This document shows positions 23,627 to 42,509 of a DNA stretch of 64,000 nucleotides, piece after piece. Position numbers and translations under genes: made by a program. A model generated the notes under the pieces. It was not told the origin of the DNA. It made no database searches and was given only the letters and a program-made list of their open reading frames with translations. The stretch's first letter is position 1; the number at the start of each line of letters is the position of its first letter. Source of the stretch: Candidatus Nomurabacteria bacterium (GTDB lineage: Bacteria > Patescibacteriota > Minisyncoccia > Phycocordibacterales > UBA9973); assembly GCA_052035195.1 (NCBI GenBank), contig JBPOHU010000001.1:13713-77712 (forward strand), read 5' to 3'.

Positions 23627-23717
23627 TGCACTAATATTTGTATATAGTAAAATATAGTTGCAATATTTGCGTATGCTCAGCTCAAAATATACATTTACTT
23701 TTGTTTCTCGTAAAAAA

Positions 23718-38218: not shown

Positions 38219-39598
38219 ATGAAATTTTCTAGTATATACATACCCACAAGGCCACAACCAGACACTATTGTAGCGATTTTCTTACTTAAGGCTTACGGGG
38301 TAACCATTTTTAATGGTATTGATACTGCTGATTATCAAGTTCTTTCTCATACTGATCAAAATAAAGATGAAAAAGAGTATTTGAAAGAAGGTAAAATATT
38401 ACTTGATGTTGGTGGAGGTATTTTTGATCACCACAATAAACTTGAAAAAACTACAGCTAGTGAACTTGTTGCCAAGGCTTTAGGTATACAAAATGAGCCT
38501 GCTATCCAAAAGCTTTTAGCTTACGCTAAGCGAGATGATTTTTATGGAAAGGGTACACAGTCTGATGATCCACTTGATAAAGCTTTTGGACTCTCTGGTT
38601 TAATAGCCGCTATGAATAAAACTCATTTGGACAATCCTACTGTTATTGTCGATACAATCCTTCCTCTTCTGCAGGCTCATCATAATCAAGAAAAACAAAG
38701 AACTATAGAATCGCCTAAAGAAATATCTTTGCTTCGAGAAAGAGGTCTTTTTTCTGAGATAGAAGTACTTCAGAAAAAAAATACACTCAAGGTTTGTTTT
38801 GTAGAATCTGATAACGTTGGTCTTCCAGGGTTTCTTCGAGCAACTGATGGTGGTCGTTATGATGTTGTAGTTCAGAAACGTAGTACTGGCCATGTAAATA
38901 TTTTGACTAAACCACTTAAAAGACCTGATTTGCGACCATTAGTCGGCTTGATCCGGGCAGAAGAGTATAGTATTCGCTCTGGTATTTTTTACCCAAATCC
39001 TGATTTGTTGAAATTACCCGGAAGAAATGACGATGTTCCGTTTTGGTATTTTGATCCAGCAACCAATTCTTTGCAAAATGGAGGTGTTAATCCTGAACAA
39101 ACAGAAGCAACTAAAATCCCCTGGGAAATAATAAAAAAACTCACGGAGAAAGGAATGGCTCTTTTTGAAGGAACAATTTTTAAACAGAAGGATCCGTCAC
39201 GTGTTTTATATACTGCTTTATTTGTAGATTCACCCGACCAACTTCTATCTAGATTTAAACCTAAGCACTCCCAGGTGTATGCGCACCATCTTACACTAAA
39301 TTATAAGCCTGAATCTATAAAAGATTTAGAAATAGGAAAGAAGATTGAACTTAAGATTATAGGGCGAGTTTCAGATGGCAATGGGGACGCCCTTCTTGTT
39401 GAAACTGATTTAAAAACAGAGGGTAGACATCCTCATATTACACTTTCTTGCGCAGAAGGTTTTCGTCCAAACTATTCAAACCAGATGGTTGAAAAGGCGG
39501 TGTTAGATGGCACTGTAGAGTATTTCGATGATGTTGAATATGTTGAAACTACCGAAGGATACGAAAATGGTGAAAATAAGGTTATTATCTCATTATAG
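38219..39598 (+). CDS. Fusion protein: divergent MYG1-like N-terminal domain plus C-terminal 2H-phosphoesterase (LigT/CPDase-like) domain
   Basis: LDVGGGIFDHHN resembles the MYG1 DVGGxYD..DHHQ motif. The C-terminal domain carries two HxT/Sx motifs (AHHLTL and HPHITLS) separated by about 70 aa, as in 2H phosphoesterases. Confidence 0.5.
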   Translation: MKFSSIYIPTRPQPDTIVAIFLLKAYGVTIFNGIDTADYQVLSHTDQNKDEKEYLKEGKILLDVGGGIFDHHNKLEKTTASELVAKALGIQNEPAIQKLLAYAKRDDFYGKGTQSDDPLDKAFGLSGLIAAMNKTHLDNPTVIVDTILPLLQAHHNQEKQRTIESPKEISLLRERGLFSEIEVLQKKNTLKVCFVESDNVGLPGFLRATDGGRYDVVVQKRSTGHVNILTKPLKRPDLRPLVGLIRAEEYSIRSGIFYPNPDLLKLPGRNDDVPFWYFDPATNSLQNGGVNPEQTEATKIPWEIIKKLTEKGMALFEGTIFKQKDPSRVLYTALFVDSPDQLLSRFKPKHSQVYAHHLTLNYKPESIKDLEIGKKIELKIIGRVSDGNGDALLVETDLKTEGRHPHITLSCAEGFRPNYSNQMVEKAVLDGTVEYFDDVEYVETTEGYENGENKVIISL

Positions 39599-39947: not shown

Positions 39948-40784
39948 CTATTTTGCATATTTCTTAAACCAAGTACGTTGACGCTTGGCATAATGCCAGA
40001 TAGCCATTTCAAGCTCTTTAAGCATCTCTTCTTTGGATAGTTTGTCTTGTAAAAATAATGCCAGATATCGATATTCCAATCCGAAAGATTCAAGTCTTTT
40101 CCAAGAGACGCCTTCAGAGTGCAAACTCTCTACTTCTTTTACCATACCCGTTTTCATTCTTTTCAAAAGTCTTTTGTGTATTCTTTCTTTCAAGACTTCA
40201 TCAGGAAAGTCTAGATATATCCACTCTACATTGTACTTGTGGTGAGCTTGCCGAACCATTTCAGGTACAGAGCCGAGCGCTGTAGCTATTTCTATAGCAC
40301 GGATAAGCCTCACTTTATTTTTCTGATCAACCAATTCAAAACGCCTAGGGTCTAATTTTTGAAGTTTATTTTGAAGTTCTTCGAGAGATAGTTTTTCTAA
40401 AGTTTTTCGAAGTGTTTTATTTGGAGGAACAGCAGGGAAGGCAATATCACAAATAACAGCATCAATATAAAATCCAGTTCCGCCGCAAATAATAGGAGTC
40501 TTGCCACGACTTACGATATCTTTGATAGCTTTGTCGGCAAACTTTTTATAACTAGATACAGAAAATACTCTTTTTGGATTTGCTATATCTAGGCAGTAAT
40601 GAGGTATACCACGCATTTCTTTTTTGGTAATTTTGCCACTACCTATATCTAAACCACGATACACTTGTCGAGAATCAGCAGAGACGATTTCTCCTCGCAC
40701 CTTTTTAGCGAGTTCTACTGCATAGTCACTTTTACCTGTAGCAGTAGGACCACATACTACGATGATTTTTTGTAATGATTTCAT
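39948..40784 (-). CDS. miaA: tRNA dimethylallyltransferase
   Basis: P-loop IVVCGPTATGKS, and SADSRQVYRGLDIGSGK. Confidence 0.9.
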   Translation of the reverse strand: MKSLQKIIVVCGPTATGKSDYAVELAKKVRGEIVSADSRQVYRGLDIGSGKITKKEMRGIPHYCLDIANPKRVFSVSSYKKFADKAIKDIVSRGKTPIICGGTGFYIDAVICDIAFPAVPPNKTLRKTLEKLSLEELQNKLQKLDPRRFELVDQKNKVRLIRAIEIATALGSVPEMVRQAHHKYNVEWIYLDFPDEVLKERIHKRLLKRMKTGMVKEVESLHSEGVSWKRLESFGLEYRYLALFLQDKLSKEEMLKELEMAIWHYAKRQRTWFKKYAK

Positions 40785-40943
40785 ACTTTTACTTTTTTAT
40801 GGGTCACTAGTTACTAAGTATTTTTTCGCTAGTTGGCGAAAAAATACAAAGTACTATCGACCCCGACTCGATTGTCCTTCGGACATATCTCCGTCTCACA
40901 AAATGTCCACAAGCAAAGAAGTTTGCTTGTTTTTCACATTTTG

Positions 40944-41024
40944 TGCCCGAGGGGAGACTTGAACTCCCACCCCTTACGAGACTCGATTTTGAGTCGAGCG
41001 CGTCTACCATTCCGCCACTCGGGC
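40944..41024 (-). tRNA. tRNA-Leu (anticodon CAA)
   Basis: Reverse complement GCCCGAGTGGCGGAATGGTAGACGCGCTCGACTCAAAATCGAGTCTCGTAAGGGGTGGGAGTTCAAGTCTCCCCTCGGGCA. Long variable arm and T-arm GGAGTTCAAGTCTCC. Confidence 0.85.
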
Positions 41025-41114
41025 AACTCGCCCCGCGAAGCTTTATGCGAAGTGGGGTTACGTCCTCATTTTACATGGTTTTTGGGTTAAGTAAACATCA
41101 AATTAATATAATAC

Positions 41115-41142
41115 TTGACAAAGTCTGTCAAAGGTGTATAGT
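41115..41142 (+). promoter_or_regulatory. Near-consensus sigma-70 promoter (TTGACA-16-TATAGT) whose -35 box is embedded in a palindrome TTGACAaagtcTGTCAA
   Basis: TTGACA at 41115-41120, TATAGT at 41137-41142. Palindrome spans 41115-41131. Confidence 0.5.
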
Positions 41143-41148
41143 GTACTC

Positions 41149-41442
41149 AGAGTTCTTACCCGCACGGAATGTCTCCTTGCGGAAACACAAAAAAATAAAA
41201 AATGAAAAGGAAAGTTCCCCCGGGCTACAATGCCCGCAACACATCTTCTGTCGATCCCTTTTATGCCGTAAGTTTTTCCGATGTGATCAGCCTGGATACC
41301 GGCCCCTGCCGCCAGCATCTGAAAAGACTGGACTGACCGACCCCGCTGCCGGGCCCGCTTTAAAACAGTAGGAGCCCAGCTAAAAAAATCTACCCATGCC
41401 TTGTGGTAGTACCCCCGATTTTTTCGGGGGTTCTTTGTTTTT
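41149..41442 (+). ncRNA. Candidate structured ncRNA (~290 nt), GC-rich, class unresolved (some RNase P RNA P4-like strings: AGGAAAGUUCCCCCGGGCU and ACAGUAGGAGCCCAGCUAA)
   Basis: GC-rich block with no credible ORF. Consensus promoter upstream. Predicted ends can pair (5' GUACU with 3' AGUAC). Strong intrinsic terminator CCCCCGA-TTTTT-TCGGGGG plus T-run at 41412-41442. Class assignment is low-confidence. Confidence 0.45.
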
Positions 41443-41474
41443 AAGCTCAAAATTTTTTATGTTATTATGTAGTC

Positions 41475-42509
41475 ATGTCAAACCTGTATTCAAATTCAAT
41501 CTTTTTTATCGACACAGATAAAATTTTTCCAAATCCATACCAACCTCGCCGAGAATTTGAACAAGGGCCACTAAACGATTTAGCAGAATCTATCCGTCAG
41601 TATGGAGTGTTGCAGCCACTAACTGTCTCTCGGGTAGAAAAAGAAACTCCAGACGGGGGGTTAATCACTGAGTATGAACTTATCGCTGGAGAGCGTAGAC
41701 TACGTGCTGCCAAACTTGCTGGTATTCCTACAGTACCTGTGATTATCAGAGTAGGAGATGATCCTATGATGAAGCTAGAGCTCGCTATCATCGAAAATGT
41801 TCAGCGCGAAGATCTCAATCCGGTAGAACGTGCTCGAAGTTTTGCTCGTCTTGTAGAAGAATTCAAACTCACTCACGCTCAAATAGGGCAAAAGGTAGGT
41901 AAGAGTCGAGAATATGTTTCAAACTCCCTTAGACTTTTGTTGATGCCACAAGAATTTCTAGATGCTCTTTCAGAGGGCAAGATAAATGAAGGTCATACAA
42001 GACCACTTCTCATGCTTAGTACTCGCAAAGAAGAGCAGATGACTTTGTTCAAAGAAATAGTTTATCGCAAGATTTCTGTAAGAGAAGCAGAGCGTATTGC
42101 GCGTCGTATTGCTACAGATAAAGCTCGCAAAAAAGAGCTTCTTCCTACGCCAGAGCTCATGGAAATAGAAAAACATTTGCAAGAGAAGCTTGGTACCAGG
42201 GTTCATATTCAGCAAGGTGAAGTCGGTGGCAAAATTACGATAGATTATTTCTCAAATGATGATCTTGATGTGATAGTTGATGTATTAGGCAAAGCACAAG
42301 CTAGAGGCACAACAGAAGAGAATTTCAAGGCTTTTATAGCAACAAAAGAGGGTACTCCTGTATCAGAAAATATTAGTTCAGAGCAAGTCCTTGAAGAAAG
42401 AGCAGAAAAAGAAGAAGTAGCTTTACTTGATGATAGAAATAAAGAAGAAGTCAAAGAATCAGAAGAAGACGTAGATAGTCTATACAATATCAAAAACTTC
42501 TCTCTCTAG
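41475..42509 (+). CDS. parB: Chromosome partitioning protein ParB/Spo0J (no adjacent parA)
   Basis: ParB box (LIAGERRLRAAKLAGIPTVPVII) and HTH region. 344 aa with an acidic C-terminal tail. Confidence 0.85.
   Translation: MSNLYSNSIFFIDTDKIFPNPYQPRREFEQGPLNDLAESIRQYGVLQPLTVSRVEKETPDGGLITEYELIAGERRLRAAKLAGIPTVPVIIRVGDDPMMKLELAIIENVQREDLNPVERARSFARLVEEFKLTHAQIGQKVGKSREYVSNSLRLLLMPQEFLDALSEGKINEGHTRPLLMLSTRKEEQMTLFKEIVYRKISVREAERIARRIATDKARKKELLPTPELMEIEKHLQEKLGTRVHIQQGEVGGKITIDYFSNDDLDVIVDVLGKAQARGTTEENFKAFIATKEGTPVSENISSEQVLEERAEKEEVALLDDRNKEEVKESEEDVDSLYNIKNFSL

Follow-up and report, generated by a model that had tools for sequence, protein, structure and literature searches.

CPR (Patescibacteria) genomes are small, and their accessory content is mostly unexplained. 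In a stretch of 64,000 nucleotides of such a genome, referred to here as the window, a short GC-rich segment between tRNA-Leu(CAA) and parB raises the question of which product it delivers, an RNA or a peptide. A sequence-only reading had described the segment as a structured RNA of about 290 nt in which every ORF was implausible, and had considered both a reduced version of a universal RNA and a new class of non-coding RNA. The source genome is of the Paceibacteria/Nomurabacteria type of CPR, and the sequence of the locus is identical in the NCBI MAG GCA_964367675.1 (contig CAYIYI010000001.1). The segment, referred to below as the unit, is present as one copy within the 64-kb window. Its neighbours are as follows:

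39948-40784, minus strand: miaA
40943-41024, minus strand: tRNA-Leu(CAA)
about 41149 to 41442, plus strand: predicted transcript of the unit, between tRNA-Leu(CAA) and parB
41475-42509, plus strand: parB
beyond parB, minus strand: relA/spoT

A literature search returned nothing on a unit between tRNA-Leu and parB. When the unit was used as query in blastn against 50,697 phage and 72,556 plasmid records, no match pointing to a phage or plasmid origin was obtained. No parS site was found in or near the unit; the sole match with three mismatches in the window, at 23702, is at chance level.

A transcription unit of its own upstream of parB

The promoter scan returned a sigma-70-type site, TTGACA-16-TATAGT, which matched at 11 of 12 positions and was the best site within 40000-42500. 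The terminator scan placed an intrinsic terminator at the other end, with a stem at 41411-41431 (ACCCCCGA/TCGGGGGT) of eight pairs, six of them G-C, and a T-run to about 41442. Both signals had been named in the sequence-only reading and are confirmed by these scans, as is the local GC peak (0.53 in 41200-41399 vs 0.36 in the whole window). Judged from the promoter spacing, transcription would start near 41149. The proposed pairing of the two transcript ends (GUACU/AGUAC) did not survive inspection: GUACU occupies 41143-41147, which places it past the −10 box but ahead of the expected start, and is therefore probably not transcribed, and AGUAC shares bases with both the last hairpin and the terminator stem. 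The unit is composed of the following parts, all on the plus strand:

41115-41142, plus strand: sigma-70-type promoter (−35 box TTGACA, 41115-41120; spacer of 16 nt; −10 box TATAGT, 41137-41142)
41160-41182, plus strand: 5′ UTR hairpin CCGCA...UGCGG, with compensatory changes
41183-41201, plus strand: A-rich, SD-less leader after the 5′ UTR hairpin
41202-41336, plus strand: small ORF of 44 codons plus TGA (MKRKVPPGYNARNTSSVDPFYAVSFSDVISLDTGPCRQHLKRLD), conserved in frame in relatives
41221-41236, plus strand: short candidate hairpin within the ORF, CGGGC-UACAAU-GCCCG, with modest support
41289-41306, plus strand: conserved block AGCCTGGATACCGGCCCC, which encodes SLDTGP and is in frame in relatives
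41337-41410, plus strand: 3′ UTR, with a GC-rich segment, an A-run (41382-41388) and the hairpin CUACC-N10-GGUAG (41390-41409)
41411-41442, plus strand: intrinsic terminator ACCCCCGA-UUUUU-UCGGGGGU with U-rich tail

Downstream of the unit, an extended −10-like element, TGTTATTAT, ends 6 nt 5′ of the parB ATG (window 41452-41477), so that parB looks leaderless. Among the 38 long ORFs of the window, three carry an SD-like core, and in many a hexamer resembling TATAAT lies 5-9 nt 5′ of the ATG; this pattern suggests that leaderless or SD-independent initiation is widespread in the genome. Since the genome hardly uses SD sequences, the A-rich, SD-less leader of the unit is normal here.

The −35 box of the unit sits within a palindrome, TTGACAAAGTCTGTCAA (41115-41131), that is conserved in several relatives. 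The palindrome could be an operator, or it could hold two −35 boxes placed back to back, one serving the divergent tRNA-Leu and the other the unit. L008, L011, L031, L038, L039 and L048 all carry the block TTGACAANNNNTGTCAAAGGTGTATA unchanged.

The unit in related genomes

Relatives were gathered through a ParB handle, a scan with the promoter pattern and matches of small proteins; the promoter-pattern scan of metagenomes contributed two loci only. Eighteen distinct units were found between tRNA-Leu and parB in related Paceibacteria/Nomurabacteria MAGs and metagenomes. Their common layout consists of a near-consensus promoter, a short leader, an ORF beginning with M[KR][KR], one to four hairpins, a terminator and the conserved parB promoter, with the terminator at the same place in every unit. 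Using nhmmer, the unit of the window was linked to those of L051, L054, L011 and L053 (E values of 5e-7 to 4e-4). Two larger clusters of units were linked to each other, and five units share the layout only.

Two relatives, L009 and L041 (ParB 86% identical), have no unit between tRNA-Leu and parB. Their parB has nevertheless kept its own promoter, which indicates that the unit stands alone.

Comparison with known RNA families

The Infernal search against Rfam that had been proposed for this locus was carried out and matched no family. With cmscan at gathering thresholds, three tRNAs were the only hits in the 64 kb. When 451 nt around the unit (41050-41500) were compared with 4227 Rfam models at E≤10, no RNase P, tmRNA, SRP or 6S RNA was matched; what did match at this threshold was weak and owed to the terminator, such as the rimP leader (21 bits, with the gathering score at 47). 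Among relatives, nine units that are homologous or syntenic had no Rfam match at E≤0.1. ARAGORN found no tmRNA in the window, and the ORF of the unit opens with AUG, unlike the start-less tag frame of tmRNA. The predicted folds of the unit contain multiple hairpins and not the single long interrupted helix of SRP and 6S RNAs.

A resemblance of two internal strings to the P4 strands of RNase P RNA had been pointed out. Both strings are present and resemble AGGAAAGUCC and ACAG...GGCU, and the unit shares with bacterial RNase P RNA the character of a GC-rich island in an AT-rich genome. The 5′ string, however, is the start of the ORF (AUGAAAAGGAAAGUUCCCCCGGGCU), where homologous units have AUGAAAAAACAACGAUC..., and the 3′ string is likewise not conserved across them. 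In further contrast to RNase P RNA, the unit has no match to an RNase P covariance model and no specificity domain, is hypervariable and is not universally present.

The idea that the unit is a strongly reduced or diverged form of a universal RNA (RNase P RNA, tmRNA, SRP RNA or 6S RNA) had only the GC content and these P4-like strings in its favour. Against it stand the failure of the covariance models and of ARAGORN, in the window as well as in the nine relatives, and the lack of conservation of the strings. Moreover, the unit is absent from the close relatives L009 and L041 and is replaced by unrelated sequence in the near-identical strain L048, which is incompatible with an essential universal RNA. 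We consider this explanation effectively excluded. What does stand is the description of the locus as a lineage-specific unit that is transcribed independently, from a strong promoter to a terminator, and falls into none of the curated RNA families.

A reading frame conserved across the units

The dismissal of every ORF proved wrong. The ORF at 41202-41336 encodes a peptide of 44 amino acids, MKRKVPPGYNARN...SLDTGP..., with the segments MKRKVPPGYNAR and NTSSVDPFYAVSFSDVISLDTGPCR, makes up most of the GC-rich core of the transcript and is conserved in frame in relatives. A counterpart with M[KR][KR] start was present in all 18 distinct units, with 16-59 codons and at a distance of 35-78 nt past the −10 box.

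We measured the distance from the AUG to four conserved anchors. It was 36, 39, 42, 45, 48, 48, 51 and 51 nt to YYYYYBGGYC (eight sequences), 27 to 63 nt to AGYRCC (ten sequences), 86 to 104 nt to CCTGGAYRCC (six sequences) and 122 to 170 nt to the stop block (six sequences). With four to nine distinct lengths per anchor, each set fell into one residue class modulo 3. Control intervals in the UTRs (35-44, 71-77 and 34-46 nt) had mixed residues. In alignments of close relatives made without regard to frame, indels came in threes within the ORF and not outside it. In 14 of 17 units, the +2 frame closed earlier than the frame set by the AUG, and the centre of the ORF contained no in-frame stop despite a divergence of about 41%. 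The SLDTGP block is in frame in L011, L039, L049, L051 and L054, where it lies 86-104 nt past the AUG, always at 2 modulo 3.

At the protein level, a profile search returned five homologues that had been called as genes by the JGI and ENA gene callers (P0121, P0122, P0123, P0125 and P0126). The nearest relatives of the window allele are P0125 and P0126, both of which contain LDTGP; P0126, a JGI-called protein of 44 aa, shares 61% identity with the peptide of the window, and their alignment contains two indels of one residue each. The motifs S-G-x-S-A and LDTGP are recognisable in the protein across distant alleles. The ORF of the window itself was never called as a gene in a collection of 15 billion proteins, and six unit peptides had no match in Pfam or NCBIfam at E≤1. 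As judged from these comparisons, the ORF belongs to an unannotated, very fast-evolving family of small genes of Paceibacteria (CPR).

Several other candidates were rejected. Two further profile matches, P0124 (2163 aa, InlB B-repeat/Flg_new repeats) and P0127 (SH3_3 repeats with Thr-rich linkers), are artefacts of repeats or low complexity. The NCBI assembly annotates an ORF of 142 aa at 40943-41371 on the plus strand (L001 2469-2897); this ORF crosses tRNA-Leu on the antisense strand and the unit in another frame, belongs to no family and is almost certainly a mis-call. An ORF of 115 aa on the minus strand at the unit, also without family, was discarded.

Substitution pattern and character of the peptide

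Among four close alleles, dN/dS was 0.9-1.8, compared with 0.01-0.08 in the adjacent parB. In the hypervariable centre, pS and pN were both 0.41, approximately three times the dS of parB, and at the conserved ends of the ORF they were 0.07 and 0.08, respectively. There was no excess of substitutions at third positions, and synonymous and non-synonymous counts were alike in all three frames. No sign of purifying selection on the amino-acid sequence was thus found, and the peptide appears to evolve at a nearly neutral rate (dN/dS about 1). Nor do the data demonstrate positive selection on it, because synonymous sites in the centre have diverged as much as non-synonymous ones.

The 44-codon ORF does not have host-like codon usage: its GC3 is 0.58, whereas the 38 long ORFs of the window average 0.25 and span 0.16-0.38, and GC is raised at all three codon positions. 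S, P, N and Q are frequent in the unit peptides, and L, I, V and E are scarce. AlphaFold2, run with an alignment of five sequences, gave no confident fold (pLDDT 59, pTM 0.24).

RNA structure

The whole stretch folds somewhat better than shuffled sequences on both strands (z = −2.67 and −2.50). Support for the 5′ UTR hairpin is good: 97.6% of cells were paired across six distinct sequences, compared with 27-46% in slid controls, and four of the seven pairs had changed on both sides. The 5′ UTR had a fold z-score of −2.3 in the window, and in cluster A the scores ranged from −1.5 to −4.5.

In relatives, the 3′ UTR is far more stable than shuffles (z = −3 to −8), and that of the window reached only −0.9. 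When the sequences were read, the A-run and the CUGCC...GGCAG hairpin were found to be kept in L011, L049, L051, L031, L038, L039 and L048. The third pair of this 3′ hairpin is A-U in the window, G-C in most units and G-U in L048.

Most ORF segments were no more stable than shuffles (window z = +0.37). At the place equivalent to 41221-41236, relatives have hairpins with different stem sequences. For the early ORF (AUG+9 to +60), comparison with shuffles gave p=0.12 in the window and a Fisher combined p of approximately 0.001-0.002 over 13-18 units, which is modest support for a hairpin tendency.

Allele pattern between strains

Between the window and L060, parB is 98.2% identical at the nucleotide level (19 differences in 1035 positions), and the unit shows no difference in 300 positions. 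A similar situation was found for L055 and L056, in which the transcribed unit differs at 0 of 463 positions and parB at 10 of 375, with a left flank that is 84% identical. This higher conservation of the unit than of parB between close strains could reflect a nucleotide-level (RNA) constraint or recent transfer.

The opposite outcome was seen with L048. Its parB is 92.4% identical to that of the window at the nucleotide level and the block from the −35 box to the spacer is identical, with a −10 box one base off (TATACT vs TATAGT), but from +1 to the terminator the two units cannot be aligned. The 3′ modules (A-run, CUGCC hairpin and CCGG hairpin) persist in L048 though the ORF cassette has been replaced. 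L011, L049 and L051 (parB 94-97% identical) are 91-94% identical in the 5′ UTR, 64-71% in the first two-thirds of the ORF and 84-96% in the last third. Since the units of near-identical strains are either identical or wholly replaced, the locus behaves as an allelic cassette.

Discussion

Our preferred explanation, which we hold to be probable though by no means settled, is that the unit is a monocistronic gene in its own right. Its mRNA would be strongly expressed, have structured UTRs and encode a small, disordered and hypervariable accessory peptide. The near-consensus sigma-70 promoter would drive a transcript of about 290 nt, from approximately 41149 to 41442. The hairpin in the 5′ UTR would act as a stabiliser, and the A-rich, SD-less region behind it would serve as ribosome entry. 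Translation of the 44-codon ORF would yield a polar, probably disordered peptide with a basic N-terminus (MKRK), a PPGY-NA motif, a hypervariable middle and an LDTGP motif. The 3′ hairpins and the intrinsic terminator would stop the transcript just 5′ of the separate, apparently leaderless parB promoter. The whole would constitute an accessory allelic cassette that is fixed between tRNA-Leu(CAA) and parB and swapped as a block between strains. We infer from the sequence that the unit is transcribed and translated, that the hairpin has a stabilising role and that the peptide, not the RNA, is the active product. The RNA may have a role besides coding, and the allele pattern suggests a function in strain-specific interaction.

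The most serious competitor, which we regard as possible and clearly the less probable, is a translated regulatory or dual-function RNA, with the RNA as main product and the peptide as by-product. The active part would be the 3′ domain (A-run and conserved hairpins) or the whole transcript, and translation of the small ORF would be favoured by selection only for its control of the folding, stability or Rho-sensitivity of the RNA. Such an RNA would fit an ORF that stays intact while its amino acids drift almost neutrally and synonymous and non-synonymous sites behave alike, as well as the GC increase at all three codon positions. It is also consistent with the compensatory changes in the 5′ hairpin, the stability of the 3′ UTRs in relatives, the early-ORF hairpin tendency (weak in single units and significant when combined), the identity of whole units including their UTRs between strains whose parB genes differ by 2-3%, and the 3′ modules that outlasted replacement of the ORF cassette in L048. 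Yet most ORF segments fold no better than shuffles, the RNA has no known target or pairing partner, and the protein motifs S-G-x-S-A and LDTGP survive across distant alleles; moreover, recent recombination explains the identity between strains equally well. A purely non-coding structured RNA of a new class, with an ORF that is incidental to a GC-rich, stop-poor sequence, would account for the GC content, the fold z-score of −2.67, the atypical GC3, the missing codon-position bias in substitutions and the fairly open other frames of some units. We judge it improbable because of the frame periodicity: lengths vary in steps of three only between AUG and stop and are mixed in the UTRs, the AUG is conserved in 18 of 18 units, the centre has diverged by about 41% without an in-frame stop, and the ORF part is not unusually structured.

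The position directly 5′ of parB also brings to mind leader-peptide attenuators such as trpL and tnaC, in which a short ORF is followed by hairpins and a terminator 5′ of a gene, with a maintained frame and a weakly conserved peptide. Translation of the small ORF would then decide whether the terminator at 41411-41431 forms or transcription reads through into parB. The order of small ORF, hairpins and intrinsic terminator is the one expected, and in the window the stop codon lies approximately 75 nt ahead of the terminator stem. This explanation is very unlikely, even more so than a purely non-coding RNA, because parB is served by a promoter of its own and also occurs where the unit is absent; the conserved extended −10 box of parB is kept in the unit-less L009 and L041. 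Reading the sequence by eye, we saw no G-rich competitor for the CCCCCGA arm of the terminator and no alternative antiterminator, and in cluster A the stop codon is separated from the terminator end by 125-200 nt and several stable hairpins.

Returning to the small monocistronic gene that we prefer, its closest counterparts are the unannotated bacterial small ORFs of fewer than 50 codons. Like these, the unit has its own promoter and terminator, encodes about 44 aa without a family and was missed when genes were called in its own assembly. It differs from them by a dN/dS of about 1 next to a parB at 0.01-0.08, by the atypical GC3 and by its cassette-like alleles. Dual-function RNAs such as SR1/SR1P of B. 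subtilis, RNAIII/hld of S. aureus and SgrS/SgrT of E. coli resemble the unit in format (a transcript of 200-500 nt, an ORF of 26-59 codons, structured non-coding parts and an intrinsic terminator), but the unit has no sequence or structure similarity to them, no Rfam match and no known base-pairing function. Allelic peptides with a hypervariable core between conserved ends are found in the comC and agrD pherotypes and in the cyanobactin and prochlorosin RiPP precursors. The unit peptide likewise has conserved N- and C-terminal parts flanking a hypervariable middle, and its alleles are identical or replaced between close strains. In contrast to these precursors, it carries no double-glycine or signal leader, and no processing, export or receptor genes were found in the approximately 6 kb around the unit, where the neighbours are miaA, tRNA-Leu, parB and relA/spoT.

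The locus is compact, apparently highly expressed and situated between two housekeeping genes, and its frame is kept even as the sequence changes as fast as expected under neutrality or faster. This combination, together with the all-or-none alleles, points to two candidate roles, in strain-level interaction or as a dual-function RNA. A tentative extension, to which we give low probability, is that the unit is a translated element acting essentially as RNA, a strongly expressed, structured and GC-rich cassette in which selection keeps both frame and nucleotides and not the peptide. It would serve as a strain-specific determinant of recognition or compatibility, acting through a dual-function RNA or through a hypervariable peptide without linked processing genes. 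If true, its centre would be swapped or hypermutated between strains of episymbiotic CPR bacteria. The unit is in any case a clear example of how small genes are overlooked or mis-called by standard annotation, and it cautions that GC-rich islands bracketed by promoter and terminator in AT-rich genomes are not necessarily non-coding RNAs.

Further observations at the locus

In most cassettes, including some that are otherwise unalignable, a GCCGGC/CCGGCC-type motif was seen by eye approximately 1-12 nt past the stop codon of the small ORF (window 41337-41362; units in L010, L011, L013, L042 and L052). Upstream of the locus, the window contains an ORF of 459 aa at 38219-39598 on the plus strand, for which Pfam gives no match.

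The tRNA-Leu side of the intergenic region is variable as well. In L008 (2506-2572), the leader between tRNA-Leu and the promoter of this tRNA gene holds a perfect inverted copy of 18 nt of the tRNA 5′ end, and a comparable insert of approximately 130 nt at the tRNA-Leu leader occurs in L011, L040, L042, L045, L049 and L051. The window has only a shorter hairpin-like insert 5′ of tRNA-Leu (41027-41062). These inserts point to a pre-tRNA leader that would pair with the acceptor and D-arm region, or to an integration remnant. In L054 (1-300), an intact tRNA-Leu(CAA) at 64-147 is flanked by fragments of a second tRNA-Leu copy, and it looks as if a tRNA gene had been split by an insertion that brought another tRNA-Leu.

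A second, AT-rich mini-unit, consisting of a promoter, a mini-ORF of 4-15 codons beginning with MKKL... and a terminator, lies between tRNA-Leu and the main unit in L039 (3480-3650). The terminator end of such a mini-unit is visible at the equivalent position in L038, and in L007 (2770-2975) a mini-unit stands in place of the main unit. The intergenic site between tRNA-Leu and parB seems to accumulate small transcription units.
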